A model generated the notes under the pieces. That model made no database searches. It was not told the origin of the DNA and saw only the letters and a list, made by a program, of their open reading frames with translations. From assembly GCA_965261345.1 (NCBI GenBank), contig OZ253449.1:2176001-2240000 (forward strand): a DNA stretch of 64,000 nucleotides. The letters run 5' to 3'. Shown in pieces: positions 1 to 14,081 of the stretch; the first letter of the stretch is position 1, and every line of letters begins with the position of its first letter. Both the position numbers and the translations under genes were made by a program. The DNA comes from Chloroflexota bacterium. GTDB lineage: Bacteria; Chloroflexota; UBA11872; VXNJ01.

Positions 1-1715
1 TGGCCCACCGCCTTGAGCAGAACCGCCATGTCGGCAAATTCGCCCGTGGTGCGACTGGCAAACGGTTCTAGCAGTTGGAGCCGATCGCTGTCGGGCGCCA
101 CCGCAATCGCAGTCTGACTTCCGTTGGGGGCCAGATATCCGGTACCTCGGGCCAGGAACCCATTGGCCGGCACCTCCGGCGCCGGTTCGGGCGGATTGAG
201 CCGCACCCCGGCGGATCCCGCGATCGGATCGCGGCGCGGATCAAAGCCCAGCCGTCCGCCGATTGCCATGCTCACGGCAATCTCCGGGCTGGTGATGAAA
301 TTCATGGTTTGGGGATTGCCGTCGTTGCGACGGGGAAAATTGCGGTTAAACGAGGTAACGATCGAATTACGGGCTGGGACCGGATTGTGAGGAGCGTCGG
401 GATCGGCCCGCCGCCACTGACCGATGCACGGCCCGCAGGCGTTGGCCAGCACGGTAGCACCGATCGCTTCCAGATCGGCGATAAGTCCGTCGCGCTCCAG
501 GGTGGCACGTACCATCTCCGAACCCGGGGTGACCAGCAGCGGCGTGGCCACCCGGAGATCGGCCGCCTGGGCCTGGCGGGCTACCTGGGCGGCCCGTGAG
601 ATGTCCTCGTAGGAAGAGTTGGTGCAGCTACCAATGAGCACCGCCGACAGTTCCTCCGGAAAGCCTTCGGTGGCAATTTCGCTGGCCAGATCCGAGAGTG
701 GGCGGGCCCGGTCGGGCCGATGGGGGCCAACCACGTGCGGCTCCAGCGCCGAAAGATCGATGTCAATGACCTGGTCGTAGTAGCGATCGGGGTCTGCCGC
801 GGTTTCGGGGTCGGCAGTTAGGAATTCCGAATTGGCCAGCGCCAGATCGGCGGCGACCGAGCGTTCGGTGGACTGCAGATATGTAATCATCCGCCGGTCG
901 AGCGGGAAGACCGAGGTGGTAGCGCCGATTTCGGCCCCCATGTTGGTGATGGTGGCCTTACCGGTGCAGGAAATGGATTCGCAGCCTGGCCCGAAGTACT
1001 CAATGATTCGGTTGGTACCGCCGCTGGTTGTTAGCAGGCCCGCCAATTTCAGGATTACGTCTTTGGGAGCCGACCAGCCGCTGAGCGATCCGCTCAGTCG
1101 CACCCCCAGGATCGATGGCGCGAGCAGCTCCCATGGAAAGCCCACCATCACGTCTACGGCGTCGGCGCCGCCGACTCCGATTGCCAGAGTGCCAAGCCCG
1201 CCGGCATTGGGTGTGTGCGAATCGGTACCAATGATCAGCGATCCAGGGACCGCGTAGTTTTCCAGCACTACCTGGTGAATGATCCCAGAACCCGGTTCCC
1301 AGAATCCCAGCCCCCACTGGGCCGACGCCGAGCGCAGGAATGTGAAAACCTCGTCATTTTCAAGCCGGGAACGGGCCAGGTCGGGCGTGGCGCCGATCTG
1401 GGCCCGAATCAGGTGGTCGCAGTGCACGGTAGTTGGGACCTGGGTACGCGCCTGCCCGGCAAGACGGAACTGCAGCAGGGCCATCTGGCCGGTTACGTCC
1501 TGGAGCGCCACCCGATCGGGCCGCAGCATGATCCAGGCTCCCGGTTCCAGCTCGATTGTCTCCGGGTCGTCGGCGTGCGCCCAGAGGATCTTCTCGGCCA
1601 GGGTCAAGGGTCGTCCCGCCCGCCGCCGGATTGTATCGAGGCGCCCGGTCAGCCGACCGTACATTGCCGAAAGGGCCTCGGGGTCGGCACCGGTTTGATT
1701 CATCGCCGCAGACAT
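1..1715 (-). CDS. acn: Aconitate hydratase (mitochondrial-type aconitase); 3' end runs off the window start
   Basis: Not in the ORF track; read by hand on the minus strand from ATG at 1715 (alternative 1703): MSAAMNQ...RPLTLAEKILWAH...LRPDRVALQDVTGQMALLQF...TTVHCDHLI...GTDSHTPNAGGLG...GSCTNSSYED. These are aconitase signatures. Confidence 0.93.
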   Translation of the reverse strand, partial: MSAAMNQTGADPEALSAMYGRLTGRLDTIRRRAGRPLTLAEKILWAHADDPETIELEPGAWIMLRPDRVALQDVTGQMALLQFRLAGQARTQVPTTVHCDHLIRAQIGATPDLARSRLENDEVFTFLRSASAQWGLGFWEPGSGIIHQVVLENYAVPGSLIIGTDSHTPNAGGLGTLAIGVGGADAVDVMVGFPWELLAPSILGVRLSGSLSGWSAPKDVILKLAGLLTTSGGTNRIIEYFGPGCESISCTGKATITNMGAEIGATTSVFPLDRRMITYLQSTERSVAADLALANSEFLTADPETAADPDRYYDQVIDIDLSALEPHVVGPHRPDRARPLSDLASEIATEGFPEELSAVLIGSCTNSSYEDISRAAQVARQAQAADLRVATPLLVTPGSEMVRATLERDGLIADLEAIGATVLANACGPCIGQWRRADPDAPHNPVPARNSIVTSFNRNFPRRNDGNPQTMNFITSPEIAVSMAIGGRLGFDPRRDPIAGSAGVRLNPPEPAPEVPANGFLARGTGYLAPNGSQTAIAVAPDSDRLQLLEPFASRTTGEFADMAVLLKAVG

Positions 1716-1874
1716 TTTTGGATCGACATCTTTGTACTGATTAGTCCTCAGCGGATTCTAGATTCAACCGGGAATCGAGTCGACTGAGCCCGGCCGGGCG
1801 GGCGAGCTATCGATCCGACGGCGATAATAGACCGCCTGCCGCAAATCCCTCTTTACCGGGCCTCGCCAACCTCC

Positions 1875-3026
1875 TTGAAGCTGCACGAATACCAGTCCCG
1901 CGACCTGCTCGCCGGTCAGGCCATACCGCTGCCGCCGGCTCGATTGGTCGTAGACCCGGCCGGCGCGGCCGAGGCTGCCGCTGAGCTGGGCGGCCGGGTG
2001 GTGATAAAGGCCCAGGTCCTTTCGGGCGGTCGCGGCAAGGCCGGCGGGATCAAATTGGTTGGCGATCCAGCGGCTGCGGCCCGGTCTGCCGGCAACATCC
2101 TGGGGCGCACGATCGGGGGCCACCTGGTGCAAAAGGTTCTGGTGGCCAAGGCCGTCGATATCGCGGCCGAATATTACCTGGCGGTGCTGCCGGATCGCCG
2201 GTCGCGAAAACTGGTGGTTATGGCCTCGGCGGCTGGCGGCATCGACATCGAACTGACAGCGGCCGAAAACCCGGCGGCGATTCATCGCCGCCGCTGCCCG
2301 GCCGACGGCCAATTGGAGCCGTACCAAGGCCGCGAATTGGCGTTTGATCTCGGATTGCCCAAGGCGCTGGTGGGCCAGTTCGCCCAGATTGCCGCGTCAT
2401 TGGTCAAGTGCCTGCAAATCAACGACGCCTCGCTGGTCGAGGTCAACCCGTTGGTAATTAGCGGCGACCAACTGCTGGCGATCGATGCCAAGATCAGCAT
2501 CGACGATTCGGCACTCTTCCGCCAGCCGGGCATGGGCGCGCTGCGCAATCCGGAGGAAGAATCCGAATCGGAGGCGTTGGCCCGCGAGGCTGGAATCTCC
2601 TATGTGGAGTTGGATGGATCGCTGGGATGCATGGTCAACGGGGCCGGATTGGCGATGGCCTTGCTCGACGTAATAGTGGCTGAAGGCGGCCGCCCGGCGA
2701 ATTTCCTCGACATAGGTGGCGGAGCGGATGCCGACCAGGTTGCCCGGGCCATGCGGATCATCCTTTCCGACCCTTCGGTCCGAGCGGTGCTGGTCAATAT
2801 CTTCGGCGGAATTACCCGCTGCGACGACGTGGCCCGCGGCATCACCGCGGCCCTGGCTGAGATCGACAAGCCGCCGCCGCTAATTTCCCGCCTGGCGGGC
2901 ACCAATCAGGCGGAAGGGCTAGCGATCCTGCGGCAAGCTGGCATCAGCGCCCACCGTGACATGCTCGCGGCCGTGCGGGCGGCGGTGGCCCTGGCCCAGG
3001 GGCCGGCTGAGCGATGCACAACCTGA
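1875..3026 (+). CDS. sucC: Succinyl-CoA synthetase beta subunit
   Basis: MKLHEYQ start, KAQV..GGRGKAGG, EVNPL, NGAGLAMA, NFLDIGGGA, NIFGGITRCD. Confidence 0.97.
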   Translation: MKLHEYQSRDLLAGQAIPLPPARLVVDPAGAAEAAAELGGRVVIKAQVLSGGRGKAGGIKLVGDPAAAARSAGNILGRTIGGHLVQKVLVAKAVDIAAEYYLAVLPDRRSRKLVVMASAAGGIDIELTAAENPAAIHRRRCPADGQLEPYQGRELAFDLGLPKALVGQFAQIAASLVKCLQINDASLVEVNPLVISGDQLLAIDAKISIDDSALFRQPGMGALRNPEEESESEALAREAGISYVELDGSLGCMVNGAGLAMALLDVIVAEGGRPANFLDIGGGADADQVARAMRIILSDPSVRAVLVNIFGGITRCDDVARGITAALAEIDKPPPLISRLAGTNQAEGLAILRQAGISAHRDMLAAVRAAVALAQGPAERCTT

Positions 3027-3883
3027 TGATCGATGCCTCCACCCCGGTCCTGGTACAGGGCATCAGCGGCCGCCAGGGGTCATTCCACACCAGGTTAATG
3101 CTCGAGTACGGCACTTCGGTGGTGGCCGGGGTGGTGCCCGGTCGTGGTGGTCAACGGGTTCACGGGGTCGAGGTTTTCGACACTGTAAACCAGGCAGTTG
3201 AGGCCAGTGGAGCAAGCGCCGGGGTGGTCTTCGTGCCCCCATTTGCGGCGGCCGATGCGGTGTGCGAACAGGCCGCCTCCGGAATAAAGACGATCGTTAC
3301 GATCACCGAGGGAATTCCGGTTCTGGATGCGGCCCGGATGATCAATTTTGCCAATCGCCGCGGCGCCCGCGTTATCGGACCCAATTGCCCGGGGTTGATA
3401 CTGCCGGGCCAGACCAAATTGGGCATCATCCCTGGATCGATCGCCCGTCCCGGCCGGGTCGGAATCGTCTCGCGATCGGGAACGCTCACCTATGAGGTGA
3501 TCCAAGCGCTCACCGATCGCGGGATCGGGCAGGCGCTCTGCCTGGGAATCGGCGGTGACCCGCTGATCGGCTTTACATTCGTGGACGCGCTCGCCGAATT
3601 TGAGGGCGATCCGGGCACCGATGCGATTGTGTTGATCGGCGAAATTGGCGGTCAAGACGAAGAAATCGCCGCCGCCTACATCCGCGAAAAAGTGTCCAAG
3701 CCGGTGGTCGGGTTCATCGCCGGACGCTCTGCCCCGCCCGAACGGCAAATGGGTCACGCCGGCGCCATCGTGGCCGGGGGAATGGGTGCGGCGGTCGATA
3801 AGATCGCGGCGCTGCAGGCCGTCGATGTGCCGGTGGCCCAGCACCCCGAACAAGTGGGCGACCTGGTCGCTACCCGGCTTTGA
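3014..3883 (+). CDS. sucD: Succinyl-CoA synthetase alpha subunit
   Basis: GPNCPG, SRSGTLTYE, GIGGD, IGEIGG, phospho-His motif MGHAGA; overlaps sucC. Confidence 0.97.
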   Translation: MHNLMIDASTPVLVQGISGRQGSFHTRLMLEYGTSVVAGVVPGRGGQRVHGVEVFDTVNQAVEASGASAGVVFVPPFAAADAVCEQAASGIKTIVTITEGIPVLDAARMINFANRRGARVIGPNCPGLILPGQTKLGIIPGSIARPGRVGIVSRSGTLTYEVIQALTDRGIGQALCLGIGGDPLIGFTFVDALAEFEGDPGTDAIVLIGEIGGQDEEIAAAYIREKVSKPVVGFIAGRSAPPERQMGHAGAIVAGGMGAAVDKIAALQAVDVPVAQHPEQVGDLVATRL

Positions 3884-4005
3884 AGCAGGCGATGGCAAAC
3901 TGCCCCGCGCGCTCGTTATGATCATTGGGGTGGGATCGATAGCCGCCAACGGCGTTCTGGATCCCGCTTCGTTCATTCGGGCAATCCCGGTTCAAGGCCC
4001 TGTCT

Positions 4006-5571
4006 TTGATTGAATACGAACTGGTTGTGGTGGGCGGCGGGATCGCCGGTCTCAGGGCCGCCATCGCCGCTGCCGAGGCCGACCTGCGGGTGGCGGTCAT
4101 TTCGCGCACCAACCCAATTGCCCATCAAGACGCAAATCTTCGTGAAGGGTTCAACGCGCCCGACGGCGACCGGCTCAAGAACGCTTTTGCAGCCGATTGT
4201 GTGGCTGCCGGTTGCGGCCTGGCCGATCCCTCAGCGATCGCGGCGGCCGCCGACCGGGCGGTCGGCGAGGCGATTGCGGTCGAACACATGGGGGCGACAT
4301 TTGCCCGATCCGCCGATGGCGGCCTGGACGCCTTTCGCCTGGCCGGCAACTCGGCTGCCTACAGCTTGCAGGCCGGTTGGTGGTCCGGTCGAGCGGTGCA
4401 GAACGCGCTAATCGATCAGGCCGCAGCGTATGCGATTGACATATTTAGCGAATGGCTCGCTCTCGCGGTTGTAACCGACGATGCCGGAGTCTGCGGCCTG
4501 ACCGCGCTCAATATCCGCTCCGGTCAGGTCCAGGCGTTTAGCGCTGGAAACGTCCTGCTCACTGAAGGATCGGTCGGCGGCATCTTCACGACCAGCGGCA
4601 ATCCGCGCTGCGCTATCGGCAGTGGCCAGGCCTTAGCCGCTGCCGTCGGGGCGCCGTTGGTCGATATGGAATTCGTCGAATATTGCGCCGGCCTAAATTC
4701 AACTTCGCCATCAATGAACGGGGCGCTGATAGGCGATGCCGCCACTGTCGCCGCGGCGGCATACACCGGATTGCGCTCCCAACCTGATCCAGCTACTCCG
4801 GGAGGCCTGGCCCGCGCGCTTGATCCGGGCGGATCGACCCGAATCGACTTTTCCGGCAACCGCGAGGAGATTGAGCTGTTCGCCGGCGAAATCGGTCTTT
4901 TGCTCGGATCCGAGCTGTCCACCGAGGTCATTCCATCGGTTGCCTACTGCGTCGGCGGGATTGCTCCCGATACCGCCATCGACGGGCTGTGGGCTGCCGG
5001 CGAGGCGGCCGTCTCGCCGTTGCTGGGAGCGGGTCTGCTCGCGGGCAATACCCTGCTCGACCTCGTTCAGTCTGCCACTGCGGCGGTGATGCAAATTACC
5101 CGGCGGTCAGGCGGGGTGCCCGCGTCGCTGCGCCTAAAAACCCAGGAAGAGATTCAACTCACCTTCAGCGGCGATCGCCAGATCGACACCGCCGTCCTCT
5201 GGGATCGCCTGCGCGCGGTAATGACCCAGTCGGCCGGCCTGGCCCGCGAACGTGATGGCCTTGAGCGTGCCCGCGGCCAGATAGATGAGATTGCCGCACT
5301 TGCGGCGCGGTCCGCACCGGCATTTCCGGGCGCACATTTCAACCTCGAGTTGGTGCGCCTATTGGAGTTGCGCCAAGGGCTGGTTACCGCGGCCGCCATC
5401 GTAGCCGGATCGAGCGCCCGGTTGGAGTCGCGTGGCCCACATCAGCGAGTCGATTTCCCGGGACAATCTGTTGATTTTGATGACCATACTGTTCTGCGCC
5501 GCGGCGATGCTGGTTTCAATGTGCAACGCGAGCTGCGGGTAGGCCGATCGCCGGCCGGAGTTGCCCGATGA
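4006..5571 (+). CDS. SdhA/FrdA-like flavoprotein with a degenerate active site (probable pseudo-enzyme)
   Basis: Retains the GGGIAG Rossmann motif, DMEF, GLWAAGE, GNTLLD and ESRGPH..DFP. The covalent-FAD His and the catalytic His/Arg/Glu positions are substituted. Confidence 0.85.
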   Translation: MIEYELVVVGGGIAGLRAAIAAAEADLRVAVISRTNPIAHQDANLREGFNAPDGDRLKNAFAADCVAAGCGLADPSAIAAAADRAVGEAIAVEHMGATFARSADGGLDAFRLAGNSAAYSLQAGWWSGRAVQNALIDQAAAYAIDIFSEWLALAVVTDDAGVCGLTALNIRSGQVQAFSAGNVLLTEGSVGGIFTTSGNPRCAIGSGQALAAAVGAPLVDMEFVEYCAGLNSTSPSMNGALIGDAATVAAAAYTGLRSQPDPATPGGLARALDPGGSTRIDFSGNREEIELFAGEIGLLLGSELSTEVIPSVAYCVGGIAPDTAIDGLWAAGEAAVSPLLGAGLLAGNTLLDLVQSATAAVMQITRRSGGVPASLRLKTQEEIQLTFSGDRQIDTAVLWDRLRAVMTQSAGLARERDGLERARGQIDEIAALAARSAPAFPGAHFNLELVRLLELRQGLVTAAAIVAGSSARLESRGPHQRVDFPGQSVDFDDHTVLRRGDAGFNVQRELRVGRSPAGVAR

Positions 5572-6281
5572 TCGCGCAGCTGCACGTGAATGTTGCGCGC
5601 TACGATCCCGAAGTTGACCGGACGGTGCGCTGGCAAACGTTCCAGGTGCGGCACGAAGCGGGAATGATGGTTCAGGATGCGTTGATCCAGATTCGCGACG
5701 AGCAGGATGGGTCACTGCGTTTTCGCGAAGCCGAAGCGGGCGGATTCTCGGGCCTCGGCGCGGTCGCCTTGAACGGGCGTCCGGTGCTGGCAGTTCGCGA
5801 GGAACTTCCGTCAGATAACCGCGAAATCAGAATCGGCCCGCTCCCTAATCATGGAGTGATCGTCGACCTGGTGGTCGACCTAGAAGTCGGCGACCACCGC
5901 GCGGTGAGCCTTCGTCCCTGGTTGCAGCGGGTCAGCGGCGTTTCCGATGGGCACCCGTCGGCGATGACGCGTGAACAGCTGGACCGACTGCAGCGCAGCC
6001 AATTCTGCAACCGGTGCGGAATCTGTGATGGCGCCCTTCGTTCGACTGGTCCAGATTTTGTGGGTGCTGCGTTCCTGCTAAAGACCTATCGGCTGACGGC
6101 CGACGTGCGAGACGACTTCGACCGCGAGCGAATGATATTGGCGGTCGGCAAAAACGGGCTCTGGCGTGTGGATTCCTCACAATTGGCCGGAGACTGTTGC
6201 CCCTACGGCCTTGAACCATTTGCGCAGATTGATAAGCTCCGCCGCGCTGCCGCGTTAAACGGGTTCACCGACCCGGGCTAG
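5568..6281 (+). CDS. SdhB/FrdB-like iron-sulfur subunit, degenerate (only the 4Fe-4S ligands remain)
   Basis: SdhB scaffold (RYDPE, DALIQIR..QDGSL.FR, PLP....IVDLVVD, CNRCGIC, CCP); ATGA overlap with the upstream flavoprotein. Confidence 0.85.
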   Translation: MIAQLHVNVARYDPEVDRTVRWQTFQVRHEAGMMVQDALIQIRDEQDGSLRFREAEAGGFSGLGAVALNGRPVLAVREELPSDNREIRIGPLPNHGVIVDLVVDLEVGDHRAVSLRPWLQRVSGVSDGHPSAMTREQLDRLQRSQFCNRCGICDGALRSTGPDFVGAAFLLKTYRLTADVRDDFDRERMILAVGKNGLWRVDSSQLAGDCCPYGLEPFAQIDKLRRAAALNGFTDPG

Positions 6282-6344
6282 TCAATTTGGGCAATCCGGG
6301 TTCGTTGGTCTCTCATCCGACCCCCGCGCAAGATTGGAACCCCC

Positions 6345-7271
6345 ATGCGACCGAAAGTTACCGTTGTAGGCGCCGGTGCCACCGGCGGCTCCACCGCCCG
6401 GCGGGTTGCCGAGCGCGGCTACGCCGACGTGGTGCTAGTTGACATTGTGGCCGGGCTGCCACAGGGCAAAACCCTGGATCTCAACCATGCCGGGTCGCTG
6501 GGCGGGTATCCGCCCAACATCGTCGGCACCAATTCCTACGATCCCTCCGCCGGGTCCGACGTCTGCGTTATCACCTCGGGATTCCCACGCAAACCGGGCA
6601 TGAGCCGCGACGACCTGCTCCTTGCCAATAAAGCGATCGTCGAGCAGGTTACCACCGAGCTGGTGAGCCGATCCCCGGAAACGATCCTGGTCATCCTTTC
6701 CAACCCGATGGATGCCATGGCACAGCTGGCAATGCAGGTATCGGGACTTCCGCGCGAGCGCGTAATTGGGCAGGGTGGAATCTTAGATTCATCGCGCTAC
6801 CGGACCTTCCTGGCATGGGAACTGGGGGTGTCCCCGGCCGACATTACCGGGTTTGTCCTGGGAGGGCACGGCGACACGATGGTCCCGGTACCAAGCTATA
6901 CGACTGTGGCCGGTATGTCGGTTAAAGAGTTGATCGCGCCCGACCGGCTTGCGGCAATAGTTGATCGGACTCGCAACGGCGGCGGCGAGATCGTGGGCCT
7001 GATGAAAACGGGCGGGGCGTTCGAGGCTCCGGGCGAGGCCTGCGCGATGATGGTCGATGCGATCTTGCTCGATCAGAAGCGCCTCTACCCCTGTGCGGTA
7101 ATGCTCGACGGCCAGTACGGGATCGACGGTACGTTCGTCGGGGTTCTGGTCAAACTTGGCGCCGCCGGCGTCGAGCAGATCATGGACTTTCCGTTGAGCC
7201 AATCGGAGTTGGCCGAGCTGCAGCGATCGGCGGCATCGGTCGGCGAATTAGTGGAAATAATGGGAATTTAG
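6345..7271 (+). CDS. mdh: Malate dehydrogenase (LDH-like type)
   Basis: VVGAGATG, PRKPGMSRDDLL, SNPMD, LDSSR, LGGHGD. Confidence 0.96.
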   Translation: MRPKVTVVGAGATGGSTARRVAERGYADVVLVDIVAGLPQGKTLDLNHAGSLGGYPPNIVGTNSYDPSAGSDVCVITSGFPRKPGMSRDDLLLANKAIVEQVTTELVSRSPETILVILSNPMDAMAQLAMQVSGLPRERVIGQGGILDSSRYRTFLAWELGVSPADITGFVLGGHGDTMVPVPSYTTVAGMSVKELIAPDRLAAIVDRTRNGGGEIVGLMKTGGAFEAPGEACAMMVDAILLDQKRLYPCAVMLDGQYGIDGTFVGVLVKLGAAGVEQIMDFPLSQSELAELQRSAASVGELVEIMGI

Positions 7272-7713
7272 GCGCCCGATCAAGGCATGTGCCGAAAGCA
7301 TTGCAATTGGCTTTGGCGTCACCCAATCGAATTTGGTTCGACTTCTTTCGCTGAAATTTAAGCGGAAACGATTGGCTCCAGTTCTCTTCCGTTGATTCTT
7401 GACGAGGAAGGAAATATTCCGGTAGGAGTTGGCATCACTGTCACTTTGGTGCTGCTCCAGCGCAGGCGCCCAGATCAGGCGCCGGCAGCTCGCAAAACCC
7501 AAAAAGCTCCCGATCAACTGGGTCCGGCGCTAGGTTGATTGCCGCCTAGGGAGCGCCGATCGTTCTATCGAGGCCCGGCGACGGCGTCAGTCCAACTGCC
7601 CAGCGAATCCGTAGGTTAAGCGTTATTGCGTCGCCCTCAACCTGGTGATCATTCCCGATTAAATCTGGCCGCGCAGCGACTATTGATAAGTCCGGGACCC
7701 GAGCGCGGGGCGG

Positions 7714-9666
7714 TCAATGTGGAGTGTCGGTTTTAAAGCTCGCTGAATGGCGTCTATCCCACGCCAGCGCGCCCAGCCATCCCGCCAGCGCAACTGCCGC
7801 CAACGAACCGGCAACCCACCGGACACTGCCCACGAGATCTCCCGCCAAATCCTGAACCGCTCGCAGGACATAGTCCGCGGTCAACTGGCTCGTACCGGCG
7901 AACGGTCCGTCGGCGAGGTCGATCATTCCTTCCCGGGCCGCGGAAAATCCGGCCGCGGAGGCGGCTTCAAAGACCGGCCAGAGAAGAATTGTGAGCGTCA
8001 ACGCCGCAATGAACAAAACCGCTGATGCCCACGCAATCCTGCCGGGCCAGCTAACGCCACCTAATAACCCGATTACAACCAACATGCCCAGCGCCACCAG
8101 ATACGAAATCCACCCGTACTGGCGCACGGCCCTGGACGCATCGCCCAATGCCTGCAGCCCTGTCCCTATCGAATCCTTAGAAGCTTCGTCCTCCAAACTT
8201 CCAATCGAAAAGACATAACCGTCGGCAAAAAACGTACGGATGTCGTCAAAATCGGCCAGGTTTCCGCCCGCCGCGAGATCTTCCCGAAGATCTGTTTGGT
8301 CATATGAATACCCTTCGGCCAACAGCCGGCGCCATTCGTCCAAGGCTTTGAGCGCCCCTGGGCCGCCAGCGCTATTTACCACGTCCCGCAGGTGAGATTC
8401 CGAAAACACGACCGAGTCCGGAAGTGGGTCAAGGACCAGGGTCTGAACCAGGCTGGCGGTCCGGGCCGTAACCGAGTCCAGGAGCTGGCTTCTCAGGATT
8501 CCGGGAGGAAGGCAGGCGGGAAGGTCGGGATTTTCCAGCGTTAAGGTCAATTCGCCAAGATCGGGCCCGGATTCACAGTCGGGGAGGGAATTTACAACCG
8601 CTGTGACCTTTTGGTCGGCCAGTCCGGTCAGGCCCAACTGCGCCGCCTGTTTGTTGGGTTCAATCGAAATTTGGGTTGTGAAGCCATCCGACCGTCCCAG
8701 GAGATAGTCGCTGGCGTCCTCGATGAAAATTTCGGCTTGTCGATCGACCAGATCCGGCGGCGCGAACTCGAGCAGCGCGTCGGTGATTTCAGCGCTGGTT
8801 ATTACCTGTCCAAACGGAACCTCCACTCCGACACCCAGGATTGGCTCGATCGCTGGCGCAATAACGTATTGGCTCAGCAGGTCGATGGCGGCGTCGCCGC
8901 CCAGGATCGCCTTGAACTCGGCTGCGGTGGCATCCGTCAGCTCTTCGGTAATGCGGATCTGCACCTCGAAGCCGTCGGAATCGGCGATTAGATACGACGA
9001 AACCTGCCGCACGGAATGCTCGGTCAATCCCGCAATCCATTCAGGGGTGATCACCCGAACCGCGGACTCGGCCAACCGCTCGCTCGCGACCGCATTTCCC
9101 CCGAAGGAAAGGGTCGCAATGTTCGACGCCTCCGTGGAGCTGGCAAACGATTCAATCAATCGGTCGCGAACCAACGGGCGAATTTCGTTTCGGAGAAGCC
9201 ATTCATAAGTGCCCGCCTCACGCAGGAGCTCCAACGACCCGTCGACCATGCCCCGCACCGGCTCAGTGGCGTTGATCCGAATCGCCACCTGATCCTGTTC
9301 CCCGGCAATGATTTGACCGATCGCCAGCGCAATCGGCGCAACGATCGCCTCCAACTTTTGCGGCGAGAGGCCAAGATGCACGGCCTCCAAGATCTGTCGG
9401 TTCGTTAACCCGGATTCGGCAAGAACATTCCGTCGAACATCCACGCCAAGTTCGGCTGGATCGGCAGCACGCACGTCGTTGAGGACCGACGCCAACAAAT
9501 CAACCACCAGAAATTGATAAACACCGCGTTTTTCGAGCTGCTGCGGATAGAAGCTTGGCTTTAGAAATGTGTCGTTTAGTCCGAACACGAAAAGCGCAAC
9601 CATCAGGGTGGGAAGAAGGATCGTCCCCCCAAGGGCAGCTATGGAGCGACGGAATAGCAGCATCAC
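7714..9666 (-). CDS. Hypothetical integral membrane protein with a large extracytoplasmic domain
   Basis: 650-aa ORF with an N-terminal hydrophobic helix, a long acidic/helical region and about three C-terminal TM segments. Confidence 0.75.
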   Translation of the reverse strand: MMLLFRRSIAALGGTILLPTLMVALFVFGLNDTFLKPSFYPQQLEKRGVYQFLVVDLLASVLNDVRAADPAELGVDVRRNVLAESGLTNRQILEAVHLGLSPQKLEAIVAPIALAIGQIIAGEQDQVAIRINATEPVRGMVDGSLELLREAGTYEWLLRNEIRPLVRDRLIESFASSTEASNIATLSFGGNAVASERLAESAVRVITPEWIAGLTEHSVRQVSSYLIADSDGFEVQIRITEELTDATAAEFKAILGGDAAIDLLSQYVIAPAIEPILGVGVEVPFGQVITSAEITDALLEFAPPDLVDRQAEIFIEDASDYLLGRSDGFTTQISIEPNKQAAQLGLTGLADQKVTAVVNSLPDCESGPDLGELTLTLENPDLPACLPPGILRSQLLDSVTARTASLVQTLVLDPLPDSVVFSESHLRDVVNSAGGPGALKALDEWRRLLAEGYSYDQTDLREDLAAGGNLADFDDIRTFFADGYVFSIGSLEDEASKDSIGTGLQALGDASRAVRQYGWISYLVALGMLVVIGLLGGVSWPGRIAWASAVLFIAALTLTILLWPVFEAASAAGFSAAREGMIDLADGPFAGTSQLTADYVLRAVQDLAGDLVGSVRWVAGSLAAVALAGWLGALAWDRRHSASFKTDTPH

Positions 9667-10613: not shown

Positions 10614-11375
10614 CTAACGCCTGCCGCGAAATACCCGGCCAAGCAATCGCTGTAACGGATCATAGGCCTCATCGGCGACTCGTTCTTTGAGCGGGATTAT
10701 CGCGTTGTCGGTGATCTTAATCCCTTCCGGGCAGATGTCGGTGCAGCATTTGGTTATGTTGCAAAACCCCAACCCGTGGACTCGCTGCAACTCGTCGCGC
10801 CGATCGAGCGTGTCAAGTGGATGCATCTCGAGGGCGGCCGCATAGACCAACAGACGCGGCCCCACGAATTCTTCGTGCAAAGCGCTCGAACGAAGTACGT
10901 GGCATACGTCCTGACAGAGAAAGCACTCAATGCATTTCCTAAATTCCTGGACCCGGTCAATATCGCCCTGCTCCATGCGCCAACCGCCGGCGGCCTGTTC
11001 CTCGGTGGTCTGCGAGCGCGGTTCAAATTTGCGAATCGACTGTTTGGCGCGGTAATTCCAACTGACATCGGCGACCAGGTCGGTAAGGACCGGAAAGGCC
11101 TTCAGTGGAGTAACGTAGATTGGCGCTTCGATGTCCAGTTCGTGGAAACCGGTCATGCAGGCCAGCCGCGGGCGGCCGTTGATCTCCATCGAACAGGATC
11201 CGCATTTGCCGGCCTTGCAGTTCCAGCGACAGGCCAGCGAGGGGTCGGCGTTGGCCTGTATCCAATGCAGGGCGTCGAGGACCACCGTCCCCTCTTCGAG
11301 CGGCACCTGGAAATCCTCGAATCGGGTTTGACCGGCATCGCCGCGCTGGACCCGGAGGGTTGCTTGCTCAGACAT
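10614..11375 (-). CDS. sdhB: Succinate dehydrogenase/fumarate reductase iron-sulfur subunit (Sdh1/Rv0247c-like)
   Basis: CRWNCKAGKCGSC...LAC, CIECFLCQDVCH, CNITKCCTDICP: full Cys complement. Confidence 0.95.
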   Translation of the reverse strand: MSEQATLRVQRGDAGQTRFEDFQVPLEEGTVVLDALHWIQANADPSLACRWNCKAGKCGSCSMEINGRPRLACMTGFHELDIEAPIYVTPLKAFPVLTDLVADVSWNYRAKQSIRKFEPRSQTTEEQAAGGWRMEQGDIDRVQEFRKCIECFLCQDVCHVLRSSALHEEFVGPRLLVYAAALEMHPLDTLDRRDELQRVHGLGFCNITKCCTDICPEGIKITDNAIIPLKERVADEAYDPLQRLLGRVFRGRR

Positions 11376-11379
11376 GGTG

Positions 11380-13182
11380 CTAGGGCCCGTCGATGATGGC
11401 TTGGAGGTCGGCTGGCGGCTTGGGCAACGGTTCGGTGACCACGATCATTTCACCGCGCGAGTCCTGTTTGACGATTACCGACTTCTCGCTCCATTCGGGC
11501 AGGCTCGCGGGATAGTCGTCGCGGGTGTGGCCTCCACGACTTTCTTTGCGTTCCCGGCCGGCCAGCGCGCTGGCCCGGGCCAGGATCAGGACGTTATGAA
11601 AGTCGAGGGCTTGGTGCCAACCCACGTTGAAGGAGGAACCGCTGGGGATCGGCGCCCGGCTGGCCCAGCTGGCATATTGATCCAGTTCGCCGAGGGCCTC
11701 TTCGAGGTCGCTCGCGCGGCGGATTATTCCGACCTTGTTATCCATCATCGCCTGCAGGCTGCCCAGCAAAGCGAATGGGTTCTCCTTGCCGCGGGCTGAA
11801 AAAGGAGCCAACGCGTCGGCCTGGGCGGCGTCGATAGTCGATTGCGCCGGTTTTACCGGGTGCGGATTGGCCAGTGCCGCCCGGGCGGCGTATTCGCCGG
11901 CGCGCTTGCCAAATACCAGCAGATCGGTGAGCGAATTCCCGCCGAGGCGATTGGCGCCATGCATTCCTCCGGCAGCCTCCCCCGCGGCGAAGAGCCCCGG
12001 TATGCTGGCGGCCTGGGATTCGGACTCAACCCGGATCCCGCCCATGATGTAGTGGGCGGTGGGCCCCACCTCCATGGCGGTCTTGGTGATGTCGACCCTG
12101 GCCAGTTCGGAGAACTGGTGGTACATGGATGGAAGACGTGAGCGGATGTCCTGGGCCGATCGTTGCGAGGCAATATCGAGAAACACCCCACCGTGCGGTG
12201 ACCCCTCGCCGGCATCGACCTGGCGCAGGATTGCCCGCGCGACCTCGTCGCGGGTTAGCAGCTCGGGTGGACGACGGGCCTGTTTGTCGCCGGCCAGCCA
12301 ACGCCGGGTCTCGGCTTCGCCGTCGGCATATTCGCCCTGGAACATCTCGGGCACGTTGTCGAACATGAATCGCTGTCCGGATCGATTTCGCAACACCCCG
12401 CCCTCGCCGCGGACCGCTTCGGTGACCAGAATGCCGCGAACCGATGGTGGCCAGACCATGCCGGTCGGGTGGAACTGGATGAATTCCATGTCGATTAGTT
12501 CGGCCCCGGCCTTCCAGGCCAGGGCGTGACCGTCGCCGGTCCCTTCCCAGGAATTGGTGTTGATCGCCCACGCCCGGCAGGCCCCGCCGGTGGCAATTAC
12601 CACTGATTTGGCGGCGATTGCCAGCATTTTGCCGTCGGATCGCTGGTAGGCGAATACCCCGACAACTCCCGACTCCTCAACCAGCAGACTGGTCACCGCG
12701 CATTCCATGTGAACGGAAATTCCCTGGTGGATGCCGTGGTCTTGGAGGGTCCGGATCATCTCCAGGCCGGTGCGATCGCCAACGTGGGCCAGGCGCGGAT
12801 AGCGATGACCGCCGAAATTGCGCTGCAGGATCAGGCCGTCGGGGGTTCGGTCGAACACCGCTCCCCAGGCCTCCAATTCGCGGACCCGCGCGGGGGCCTC
12901 CTGCGCGTGGATCTGGGCCATCCGCCATTGCCCCAGGAGCTTGCCGCCGCGCATCGTATCGCGGAAATGGACTTCCCAGGAATCGCGCGGGTCGGTGTTG
13001 CGCAGAGCCGCGGCCATTCCGCCCTCAGCCATGACCGTGTGGGCCTTGCCAAGCAGCGATTTGCAGATTACCCCGACGCTGGCCCCCTCGGCGCGGGCGG
13101 CGATCGCCGCCCGCAGGCCGGCCCCGCCGGCCCCGACGATCAGGACGTCGTAGGCGAGTTGTTCGGGCGTCGGCGCATTCAT
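11380..13182 (-). CDS. sdhA: Succinate dehydrogenase/fumarate reductase flavoprotein (Sdh1/Rv0248c-like)
   Basis: GAGGAG, KAHTVMAEGG (FAD-His), QFHPTG, TEAVRGEG, LLTRDEV, HYIMGG, HGANRLGGNSL, ESRGGH. Confidence 0.96.
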   Translation of the reverse strand: MNAPTPEQLAYDVLIVGAGGAGLRAAIAARAEGASVGVICKSLLGKAHTVMAEGGMAAALRNTDPRDSWEVHFRDTMRGGKLLGQWRMAQIHAQEAPARVRELEAWGAVFDRTPDGLILQRNFGGHRYPRLAHVGDRTGLEMIRTLQDHGIHQGISVHMECAVTSLLVEESGVVGVFAYQRSDGKMLAIAAKSVVIATGGACRAWAINTNSWEGTGDGHALAWKAGAELIDMEFIQFHPTGMVWPPSVRGILVTEAVRGEGGVLRNRSGQRFMFDNVPEMFQGEYADGEAETRRWLAGDKQARRPPELLTRDEVARAILRQVDAGEGSPHGGVFLDIASQRSAQDIRSRLPSMYHQFSELARVDITKTAMEVGPTAHYIMGGIRVESESQAASIPGLFAAGEAAGGMHGANRLGGNSLTDLLVFGKRAGEYAARAALANPHPVKPAQSTIDAAQADALAPFSARGKENPFALLGSLQAMMDNKVGIIRRASDLEEALGELDQYASWASRAPIPSGSSFNVGWHQALDFHNVLILARASALAGRERKESRGGHTRDDYPASLPEWSEKSVIVKQDSRGEMIVVTEPLPKPPADLQAIIDGP

Positions 13183-13961
13183 GCCGCGATCAAGATCAAG
13201 CGCGGGTCGATGACGGTCTCGGTGGCCACCAGGCGGACGTAGACATCGACCAGAGCGACCCAGATGAGCGAGAACCAGGCCCAGTTGCCGTGGCGCAGGT
13301 TAAAGAATGTCGCGATTTTCCAGAGTCGACCGCGGGTTCGATTCACCAGTGAACAGGAGAAGCAATCGACCCGCCCACCGACCAGGTGGCGGAGCGAGTG
13401 GCATCCCAGTACGTAGCCGCCCAGCGAGACCGCATTAACGACCATGAGCACCGTGCCCAGTCCCACTCCGAAGCCCTCGCTAAAGAAGAAGGCCAGTATT
13501 GCGTCGTAGACGAAGATCACCACCAGGGCCAGCGCGAATGGCAGGGCATAGCGGTGCAGGTTCTGCCAAATCAGCAGTCGGCGCTCGCCCGAATAAGGAA
13601 GGTTGAGGCGGCCGACCGCGCAAGCCGGCGGCGAAAGGAAGTAGGAGCGGTAGTAGGACCGGCGGTAGTAGTAGCAGGTGATGCGAAAGGACAGCGGGGC
13701 CCAGAGGATTAGCAGGGCCGGCGTGCGCAGCCATCCAGGCCACCAATCGGGCCAGACAAACCCGGAAAAATGAGGTGAATAAAAGGGTGATAAATAGGGC
13801 TCGGCGACGTGATGTTCGTTTTGGGCACCCTGCAATATGACCCAACCCGAATAGAGGATGAACGCGCCAAAAATAAGACCGAAACGCAACGGTTCGACCC
13901 ACCATCGGTCAACCCGCAGGGTCTGCCCAAGGCGCGCGTTGGCGGCCGGTATGCTAGCCAT
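13179..13961 (-). CDS. Succinate dehydrogenase single membrane anchor (Rv0249c-like)
   Basis: Multi-TM protein with TLR.DRWW, SPFYSP, FRITCYYYRRSYY, N.HRY, GCHSLRHLVGG; overlaps the sdhA start; alternative start GTG at 14000. Confidence 0.88.
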   Translation of the reverse strand: MASIPAANARLGQTLRVDRWWVEPLRFGLIFGAFILYSGWVILQGAQNEHHVAEPYLSPFYSPHFSGFVWPDWWPGWLRTPALLILWAPLSFRITCYYYRRSYYRSYFLSPPACAVGRLNLPYSGERRLLIWQNLHRYALPFALALVVIFVYDAILAFFFSEGFGVGLGTVLMVVNAVSLGGYVLGCHSLRHLVGGRVDCFSCSLVNRTRGRLWKIATFFNLRHGNWAWFSLIWVALVDVYVRLVATETVIDPRLILIAA

Positions 13962-14081
13962 GGCGGAAATGCCCCACCTATCGCCTGGGAACGAATGCAC
14001 GAAATCTCCACTTAGGATAGTTTGTGCGGGCTTCCAGATTGGCCGCCGCCGCCCGGCACGGATAAGAAAATTGGGCTACCG

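Follow-up and report, generated by a model that had tools for sequence, protein, structure and literature searches.

Why would a bacterium keep, inside a citric-acid-cycle operon, two intact genes that resemble the catalytic core of succinate dehydrogenase (SDH) and that encode none of the residues by which SDH works? The question is raised by two open reading frames (ORFs) in the window analysed here, a 64,000-nucleotide stretch (G000:C1:2176001-2240000) of a Chloroflexota genome, G000, which consists of a single contig of 2.39 Mb. The first ORF (A', 4006-5571, + strand, TTG start, 521 amino acids) encodes a homolog of flavoproteins with the SdhA/FrdA fold, and the second (B', 5568-6281, + strand, ATG start, 237 amino acids) encodes a protein with the SdhB/FrdB fold. 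Neither contains an internal stop, and the operon runs on the + strand in the order sucC (1875-3026), sucD (3014-3883), A', B', mdh (6345-7271). From the alignments, the fold model and the genome comparisons that follow, we conclude that A'B' is almost certainly not an SDH, and we lean towards the view that it is maintained as a non-catalytic, cofactor-bearing dimer that would have a structural or regulatory action on the proteins expressed with it.

An earlier reading of the window, made from its letters with no database searches (hereafter the sequence-only reading), had described two full-length, translationally coupled ORFs between sucD and mdh and no membrane-anchor gene beside them, and direct reading of the frames bears this out. 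A' and B' overlap in the ATGA at 5568-5571, a GGAG lies 9-12 nt upstream of the B' ATG, and neither the ORFs nor a domain scan gave an anchor gene between sucD and mdh, the sole anchor homolog being that of the genome's canonical SDH operon.

A' has an SdhA-like fold and none of the SdhA signature residues

A' matches the Pfam domains PF00890 and PF02910. Its score against TIGR01812 is 206 bits, compared to a cutoff of 567, and it lies far below the cutoff of every SdhA, FrdA, TfrA and NadB equivalog, with no curated family claiming it. By sequence, the PDB entries that it matches best are chains of E. coli FrdA (E 5e-35), to which it aligns in two stretches (residues 4-245 with FrdA 6-252, and residues 308-499 with FrdA 351-556), and its capping domain comprises ~62 residues where FrdA has ~98, a shortening of ~36 residues. 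An AlphaFold2 model built on a 28-sequence alignment (predicted local distance difference test, 87.9; predicted template modelling score, 0.91) found complex II flavoproteins as its top Foldseek matches (TMq 0.83-0.89). On this model, A' is predicted to have the four-domain SdhA fold, with flavin adenine dinucleotide (FAD)-binding, capping, helical and C-terminal domains, of which the capping domain is shortened. The SdhA and SdhB scaffolds that the sequence-only reading had recognised thus reappear in the Pfam matches of both proteins and, for A', in the predicted structure.

With a FrdA-type protein as reference, we scored eight positions that mark the active site and that are numbered here as in E. 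coli FrdA: His232, Thr244, Glu245, Arg287, His355 and Arg390, together with the covalent-FAD His and the Arg of TEAxRGEGG. In FrdA, His232, Thr244, Glu245, Arg287, His355 and Arg390 serve dicarboxylate binding and proton transfer, and the His for the covalent 8-alpha linkage to FAD sits in an R-S-H-[ST] motif. A' of G000 keeps none of the eight, while 20 canonical rows of the same alignment keep all of them. Compared to both the intact SdhA encoded nearby and the FrdA-type reference, QFHPT has become EYCAG, TEAxRGEGG has become IGDAATVAAA, the RD loop has become QPDPATP, HYxMGG has become AYCVGG and HGANRL has become LGAGLL; every catalytic substitution that the sequence-only reading had listed against the nearby SdhA was reproduced. 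That reading had also held that the covalent His is displaced. The replacement of the motif around it stands (HQDANLREG in place of HTxxAxGG), whereas the register at the level of the single residue is ambiguous, with HMMER putting Q41 at the position and H40 one earlier, and MAFFT putting H40 there. The covalent-FAD His of A' is probably displaced or lost, the exact residue being uncertain.

Survival of the GxGxxG motif and of a C-terminal ESRGxH, also reported earlier, was verified (VVVGGGIAGL and LESRGPHQRVD). The FAD-motif residues G10, G12, G188, G332, E333 and N348 do not vary among 28 sequences of canonical and stripped proteins, and the C-terminal ESRGxHxRxD (R472-D483) is likewise invariant in both kinds. 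Through these retained dinucleotide-binding motifs A' would bind FAD non-covalently. The former catalytic positions drift within the window's genus (g1): C, L, V or A stands in place of His232, and His355 has given way to A in G000, whereas the other members have H there. Because the residues there vary within g1, the former catalytic positions appear to have no conserved new use.

B' retains a single [4Fe-4S] motif

B' matches PF13085 only, the N-terminal Fer2_3 domain, and its sequence matches in the PDB reach E 5e-27 (FrdB, E 3e-20). It passes the TIGR00384 subfamily cutoff (137 bits versus 88) and falls below the cutoff of every other SdhB/FrdB model, such as NF004616 (137 bits versus 228). 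When its cysteines were mapped on solved SdhB chains and 15 aligned sequences, we found none of the four [2Fe-2S] cysteines, where E, S, G and V now stand, none of the three [3Fe-4S] cysteines, and all four [4Fe-4S] cysteines (C147, C150, C153 and C211, the last followed by P212), which are invariant in 15 of 15 sequences. An extra Cys210 beside C211 is present in G000 only. B' would bind one [4Fe-4S] cluster through its CxxCxxC...CP motif.

In canonical enzymes, the 2Fe-2S loop of SdhB faces the flavoprotein. The same loop in B' is free of cysteines and strongly conserved in g1 (SLRFRE.EPGGFSG.GAV.LNGRPVL), and from this conservation, together with the translational coupling of the two genes, we infer that A' and B' form the usual A-B heterodimer. 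In solved complex II, the 2Fe-2S cluster relays between FAD and [4Fe-4S], and without it the gap should exceed the physiological tunnelling limit of ~14 Å. With this relay cluster missing, the FAD and the remaining cluster of A'B' are probably not wired together, and the pair can hardly be a wired dehydrogenase.

Succinate or fumarate chemistry in the g1 pair is not to be expected either, because the eight positions, the FAD-proximal 2Fe-2S cluster and the quinone-side 3Fe-4S cluster are gone and the cap that closes over the substrate is shortened; the ancestral active-site chemistry as a whole would be gone. We propose that the dimer would bear cofactors without catalysing a reaction and would serve other proteins as a structural or regulatory partner, possibly as a sensor of cofactor or redox state, and that its likely targets would be proteins made together with it, namely SucCD, Mdh or the canonical Sdh subunits.

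A working SDH or fumarate reductase (FRD) with an unusual active site would be consistent with the fold, the place in the citric-acid-cycle operon and the TIGR00384 score of B'. We regard it as the least credible of all the explanations considered, since 0/8 signature positions remain, the 2Fe-2S and 3Fe-4S clusters and the anchor are absent, A' scores far below all SdhA, FrdA and NadB cutoffs, and the genome holds a complete canonical enzyme; residual SDH/FRD activity is essentially excluded. The sequence-only reading's judgement that A'B' is not a succinate dehydrogenase is supported.

Both genes are kept by purifying selection

Searching 41 related genomes, we found a strong A' ortholog in all seven g1 genomes, G000 included (E<=8e-151, 52-60% identity), and a 36%-identical ortholog in one sister genus. 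The sequence-only reading had named canonical SdhAB or frameshifted remnants in the same slot of close relatives as evidence that would count against it; the slot contains neither, and the stripped A' stands there in 7/7 g1 genomes. A collection of 5.8 billion proteins yielded 15 distinct full-length A' proteins (query included) that are mutually 51-93% identical, after which identity drops to 32%. The six g1 A' genes read at full length, that of G000 among them, all encode 520-521 amino acids from a TTG start, so that length and start codon are constant across ~50% protein divergence, and the pair is retained in small genomes of 1.9-2.4 Mb.

We estimated the ratio of non-synonymous to synonymous substitution rates (dN/dS) by the Nei-Gojobori method (NG86) among the three closest genomes, where dS is 0.36-0.62 for A' and B' and hence unsaturated; the draft genome G001 was left out of all rate estimates, and G004 out of that for sdhA, in which its ORF is split. 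The ratio is 0.14-0.16 for A' and 0.09-0.10 for B', in keeping with the sequence-only reading's expectation of values below 1, compared to 0.11-0.18 for sucC, 0.10-0.13 for sucD, 0.06-0.08 for mdh, 0.095 for canonical sdhA and 0.08-0.11 for sdhB. Each of four regions of A' gives a ratio between 0.09 and 0.27. At the level of strains, a near-identical contig from another study covers 3900-6400 and differs there by 16 bases, without any indel; every difference falls within the A' and B' ORFs, 15 of them being synonymous and one non-synonymous (599 synonymous versus 1675 non-synonymous sites). A second run of that study gave 13 synonymous and 4 non-synonymous differences, of which 13 differences are common to both runs, which are therefore not independent. 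Contig X9, which is less closely related, aligns without gaps and differs by 101 bases, and the in-gene differences among those listed number 23 (18 synonymous and 5 non-synonymous). Purifying selection thus keeps both A' and B', at a strength similar to that on the neighbouring enzymes. Judged by its sequence, A'B' would classify as a pseudo-enzyme, combining homology to an enzyme, loss of catalytic residues and purifying selection.

These data bear most directly on slow decay, in which A'B' would be a functionless remnant that is still undisrupted. Several observations point that way: A' evolves faster than its neighbours, with identities between G000 and the other g1 genomes of 57-59% versus 69-83% for sucC, sucD, mdh, sdhA and sdhB, and with dN of 0.35-0.37 versus 0.11-0.25 for these neighbours; measured between G000 and the rest of g1, dN is 0.35-0.45 for A' and 0.16 for canonical sdhA; the former catalytic positions drift; and one draft genome, G001, has a TAA inside A'. 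However, the G001 sequence is a 6-kb draft contig (L018) on which acn, sucC and sucD are likewise split, and for this reason its TAA is likely a sequencing error. The draft contig of G004 (L016) has split sdhA and acn, and the split ORFs of both genomes likely reflect assembly or sequencing errors instead of decay. A decaying gene is also difficult to square with low dN/dS in all regions of A', with strain differences that are 15:1 synonymous and include no indels, with a constant length and conserved TTG, and with retention in such small genomes. We consider decay highly improbable; it is largely refuted, and essentially excluded together with residual SDH/FRD activity.

Sister genera carry graded forms of the pair

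The family to which the window's genus belongs includes three sister genera with the pair (g2, g3 and g4) and a fifth genus (g5). In 12 of 13 loci of relatives the gene order is acn / sucC-sucD-A'-B'-mdh, and the 13th contig stops after A'. The sequence-only reading had proposed to check whether the synteny and the substitutions are conserved; the synteny is found in relatives, and the pair itself is conserved at 51-93% identity. The number of signature positions kept declines from 8/8 in canonical proteins to 5/8 in g3 and g4, 1/8 in g2 and 0-2/8 in g1, and TIGR01812 scores fall in step, from 754 bits for a canonical FrdA of g2 to 552, 359 and 206 bits.

The six g3 and g4 genomes encode an A' of 561-584 amino acids in which the covalent-His site is Gly or Ala, QFHPT has become QFNPT, and HGANRL has become HGAGPL, HGAGSL or HGASSL. 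Their 2Fe-2S cysteines are kept, while two of the three 3Fe-4S ligands are lost in g3 and all three in g4. The g2 pair has lost the covalent-FAD His, the 2Fe-2S cysteines and the 3Fe-4S ligands altogether. The g1 pair has the covalent His lost or displaced by one residue, has lost the 2Fe-2S and 3Fe-4S clusters, and has the shorter capping domain. The g5 loci (L027:4691-10399 and L028) read sucC-sucD-mdh-frdA-frdB, with a fully canonical FrdA-type pair after mdh, nothing between sucD and mdh, and no A'B'. Within this family, the slot by mdh would thus range from a functional enzyme in g5 through intermediates at graded stages to the pair that is stripped.

Of 98 genomes that we sampled across the class, 13 encode a B'-like protein (E<=1e-32), and each of the 13 belongs to one of the four A'B' genera; the 85 genomes with no match at this threshold include G001, whose contig ends before B'. 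We then compared the A' forms in a maximum-likelihood tree of 53 chosen rows (10 from the loci, 26 best distant representatives minus one fragment, and 17 canonical or NadB-like). A' proteins of g1 and g2 group together (99/94), and those of g3 and g4 lie on the same side of a 92/83 branch as g1 and g2, with a long-branched, non-syntenic metagenomic protein, P0249, interposed. The stems are 1.71 substitutions per site for g1 and 0.96 for g2, compared to a median terminal branch of 0.53, and because these stems are long we regard synteny as firmer evidence of orthology than the tree. The nearest canonical relatives of the g3 form are SdhA/TfrA-like proteins of ~560 amino acids, at no more than 46% identity, and A'B' descend from another SdhA lineage than the window's Sdh1, that of TIGR01812/PRK06069-like proteins of ~560 amino acids. 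Read together, these comparisons make A'B' the end point in the evolution of an SdhAB paralog that is old and soluble, has no anchor and is restricted to four genera within a single family.

A rebuilt pocket as an alternative

The graded series can also be read as neo-functionalisation, in which A'B' would be an active flavoenzyme or small-molecule binder with its pocket rebuilt for a substrate other than a C4-dicarboxylate; O2 or a diffusible acceptor would react directly at the flavin, and B' would be kept for stability or for a role of its cluster other than relay. Four points weigh against a non-catalytic dimer here. First, six new polar or aromatic residues (D42, N44, R46, W125, W126 and R129) are invariant in 15/15 g1 sequences and lie in loops that line the flavin in canonical enzymes: the motif D42-x-N44-x-R46-[ED]-G48-x-N-A-P replaces the HTxxAxGG loop and WW[ST]GR (125-129) replaces D[KR]TG, each in all 15 sequences. 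Second, the shortened capping domain is itself under purifying selection (dN/dS 0.09-0.16), as is every other domain of A'. Third, one glycine of the FAD motif ATGG is Glu or Asp in g1 (LTEG/LTDG). Fourth, the argument from the gap between FAD and [4Fe-4S] leans on distances in solved complex II structures. The new invariant residues and the constrained capping remnant fit a remodelled pocket as well as a dead one.

Neo-functionalisation gains further from g3 and g4, which keep 5/8 positions and differ by just two substrate-binding swaps (His to Asn, and Arg to Pro or Ser), a pattern that resembles altered specificity and not decay, and from the burst of substitutions on the g1 stem followed by constraint, which is the pattern expected for a change of function. 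It must nonetheless accommodate the loss of all acid-base and hydride-transfer residues and the variation of those positions within g1, a shortened capping domain, and the lack of any curated family for A'. An oxidase, moreover, would not need B', yet B' is the more constrained of the two proteins and has no flavin-adjacent cluster. We judge a rebuilt pocket with a new substrate or ligand less likely than a non-catalytic dimer, though it is the main alternative. The sequence-only reading had ended with these two options, a maintained pseudo-enzyme or an enzyme with a new substrate.

The canonical enzymes of the genome

G000 carries an intact Sdh1-type SDH operon (10614-14000, - strand) ~4 kb downstream of the A'B' operon. 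It encodes an anchor (13179-14000, - strand) that matches the M. smegmatis Sdh1 anchor 7d6v_C at E 1.6e-46, a canonical SdhA (11380-13182, - strand) with 8/8 signature positions and 897 bits against NF005866 (cutoff 819), and a canonical SdhB (10614-11375, - strand) with all cluster cysteines and 371 bits against NF009052 (cutoff 256). This operon adjoins the A'B' operon in 6/6 full-length g1 loci. The genome also has a separate NadB-like gene (540-aa frame). Its sole fumarase candidate is a class II FumC-like gene (G000:C1:569460-570821) that scores 491 bits against TIGR00979 (cutoff 665) and may encode an aspartase rather than a fumarase; a search of the genome for class I fumarase domains found none. 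We considered A'B' as a substitute for a missing fumarase and rejected this idea given the FumC-like gene, with its below-cutoff score and the possibility that it is an aspartase. With canonical SdhCAB and the FumC-like gene in the genome, the citric-acid cycle does not need A'B'.

The neighbouring canonical operon raises the possibility of a decoy or alternative subunit of the real Sdh1-type SDH, in which a mixed dimer would form (A' with the canonical SdhB, or the canonical SdhA with B') and influence how that enzyme is assembled, how it attaches to the membrane or how active it is; this is the non-catalytic dimer view narrowed to a named partner. Pseudo-enzymes often regulate their own active paralogs. 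A' and B' have each kept the fold of their subunit, the loop of B' that once held the 2Fe-2S cluster is highly conserved and cysteine-free, the canonical operon is adjacent in every full-length g1 locus, and the yeast protein Tim18, as described in a review (PMC10238741), offers a precedent for complex II paralogs in non-redox roles. However, A' and B' share no more than 25% and 30% identity with the window's canonical SdhA and SdhB, and g2 keeps A'B' though its canonical enzyme is of the other, FrdA-like type, which argues against tight co-adaptation with one partner. We therefore hold a decoy subunit to be improbable in this specific form.

Spacers and neighbours of the operon

The genes around A'B' are assigned by curated families: sucC encodes succinate-CoA ligase beta (NF001913, 437 bits versus a cutoff of 370), sucD succinate-CoA ligase alpha (NF004230, 387 versus 336) and mdh malate dehydrogenase (TIGR01763, 408 versus 352). 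A divergent aconitase gene (3-1715, - strand) lies upstream of sucC.

Between sucD and A' lies a spacer of 122 nt (3884-4005, + strand), which measures 127-133 nt in the five other g1 genomes read. It contains conserved blocks, including an AT-rich TTA.(A/G/C)AT...GTGGG stretch, and an AGG/GAGG site resembling a ribosome-binding site ~10 nt before the TTG, and it is a possible internal promoter or 5' leader for A'B' and perhaps mdh. There was no Rfam match at E<=1 in 1600-7800, and a promoter and terminator scan found no sigma-70-like or terminator-like sites on the + strand of the spacers. One weak terminator-like site lies within A' (4882-4896), and terminator-like sites total 2 compared to 5.0 expected from shuffling.

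Two exact copies of the 15-mer GGGCAATCCSGGTTC, and no more, exist in the 2.39 Mb genome, on either side of A'B': one copy at 3979-3993 (+ strand), 13 nt before the A' start, and one at 6289-6303 (+ strand), 8 nt after the B' stop and 42 nt before the mdh start. Three copies with one mismatch lie elsewhere in the genome within long open frames and look like chance occurrences. Among the five further g1 genomes read, four have a motif similar to it, CGGGC(C)AA..CGGG, ahead of A', and no such motif was found after B' in those genomes.

Between mdh and canonical sdhB, the segment 7714-9941 (- strand) holds two ORFs of 650 and 92 amino acids, the longer with hydrophobic segments at either end. Neither has a Pfam or NCBIfam match, nor a homolog in the other five full-length g1 loci, in four of which the gap from mdh to sdhB is ~40 nt or less; the gap is ~1 kb in the fifth, G003. 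The G+C content of the segment is 0.58-0.60 versus 0.64, and it looks like an insertion specific to G000.

Stripped SdhA-like proteins elsewhere

We then asked how far such losses extend by searching 1.84 billion representative proteins with A' in HMMER, and obtained 5616 matches at E<=1e-3, of which 52 were at E<=1e-30. Before the 25 best distant matches were picked, P0003 (from g1 itself), P0244 (g2-like), P0123 (g3) and P0262 (a fragment) were set aside. Nine of the 25 keep no more than 5/8 signature positions (P0246, P0249, P0252, P0254, P0255, P0256, P0260, P0266 and P0269), a proportion that is no estimate of frequency, as a stripped query may preferentially draw stripped matches. These nine are scattered at several places, four or more, among the canonical sequences of the 53-row tree. 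Eight of them were scanned against curated families (P0269 was left out), and all but P0266 lie below the TIGR01812 cutoff, with no other curated family claiming the scanned proteins. This distribution suggests repeated loss of catalysis in SdhA-like proteins across metagenomes.

A broader proposal can be built on these matches: A'B' would be a true pseudo-enzyme, a dead complex II module that holds FAD and [4Fe-4S] and serves as a structural or regulatory subunit of the co-expressed citric-acid-cycle enzymes, and it would stand at the far end of a broader class of stripped SdhA-like proteins, so far unrecognised, with several origins among bacteria and archaea. We put this forward tentatively, as a composite whose parts may well not all hold.

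Three further observations concern distant relatives. On a contig of an Armatimonadia metagenome-assembled genome (L031:7001-9405), a stripped SdhA-like gene, 62% identical to P0249 (which keeps 2/8 positions), is coupled to an SdhB gene with the cysteines of all three clusters; this pair has no anchor and no citric-acid-cycle neighbours, and adjoins genes for LptF/G and a T2SSF-like protein. A search for related loci with P0256 gave 80 loci of the canonical SdhA/TfrA kind (33-42% identity), none of them closely related, and a search with P0001 gave only an archaeal SdhA at 23% identity. Finally, a clade of proteins of ~540 amino acids (P0018, P0021, P0033 and P0251) has Asn at the covalent-FAD His position and HGAGRLAGN instead of HGANRLGGN, and keeps His232, Thr/Ser244, Glu245, Arg287, His355 and Arg390; it seems to form a separate group with non-covalent FAD, intermediate between NadB and SdhA.

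Significance

Succinate dehydrogenase is among the most conserved and best-studied of enzymes, and its catalytic A/B dimer is usually regarded as an invariable functional unit. The complete A/B pair described here lacks the catalytic residues and two of the three clusters, yet it sits in a citric-acid-cycle operon under enzyme-like selection. If A'B' proves to be non-catalytic, we know of no other complex II catalytic core that has been reused as a non-enzyme. The graded series, from 8/8 through 5/8 and 1/8 to 0/8 positions and from three through two to one cluster, shows how such a conversion may proceed stepwise. The finding should surprise a specialist in complex II and is approachable by experiment, and it is so far confined to a few uncultured genera. 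It also has a practical side: database labels on some A' homologs read 'succinate dehydrogenase/fumarate reductase flavoprotein subunit' or 'FAD-binding protein', and anyone reconstructing the metabolism of these Chloroflexota could on that basis include a second SDH/FRD, which almost certainly does not exist.

Comparison with known systems

A full-text literature search, which did not extend to supplementary files, found no paper describing a catalytically stripped SdhAB pair. The closest well-characterised relatives are E. coli FrdA/FrdB (1kf6, 3cir) and SdhA/SdhB (1nek), which have the same two-subunit architecture and folds as A'B' and share with it the FAD dinucleotide motifs, the ESRGxHxRxD motif and the [4Fe-4S] CxxCxxC...CP. 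Unlike these enzymes, A'B' lacks the substrate-binding and proton-transfer residues, the 2Fe-2S and 3Fe-4S clusters and probably an in-register covalent His; it also has a shorter capping domain and neither a membrane anchor nor a quinone site. M. smegmatis Sdh1 (class F complex II, 7d6v) represents the type of the window's intact SDH and has the SdhA and SdhB folds in common with A'B'.

NadB (1knp, 1chu; match at E 1e-21 to 1e-23) resembles A' in being soluble, anchor-less and similar in length, and it has no covalent-FAD His, as is probably true of A'. In contrast to A', which keeps 0/8 signature positions, NadB retains its catalytic His/Arg set (7/8 in P0049, P0086 and P0104), and it works with no Fe-S subunit; A' scores 162 bits against TIGR00551, whose cutoff is 453.

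Another kind of parallel comes from a 2023 review of non-canonical complex II, which covers soluble SDHA homologs with other redox roles and in whose text the word 'pseudoenzyme' does not appear (PMC10238741). The same source describes Tim18, a paralog of SDHD that partners SDHC in TIM22, a translocase of yeast, and binds no heme. Tim18 is a complex II subunit paralog that has lost its cofactor and taken on a non-respiratory structural role (PMC10238741), a role of the kind that A'B' would have if our reading of the pair is right; as a eukaryotic membrane subunit and not a catalytic A/B pair, it is a conceptual precedent only. The nearest counterparts remain the A'B' pairs of the sister genera g2, g3 and g4, which are orthologous by synteny and, like the g1 pair, have no anchor and a loss of 3Fe-4S ligands; the covalent His is missing from them and is probably lost or displaced in g1.

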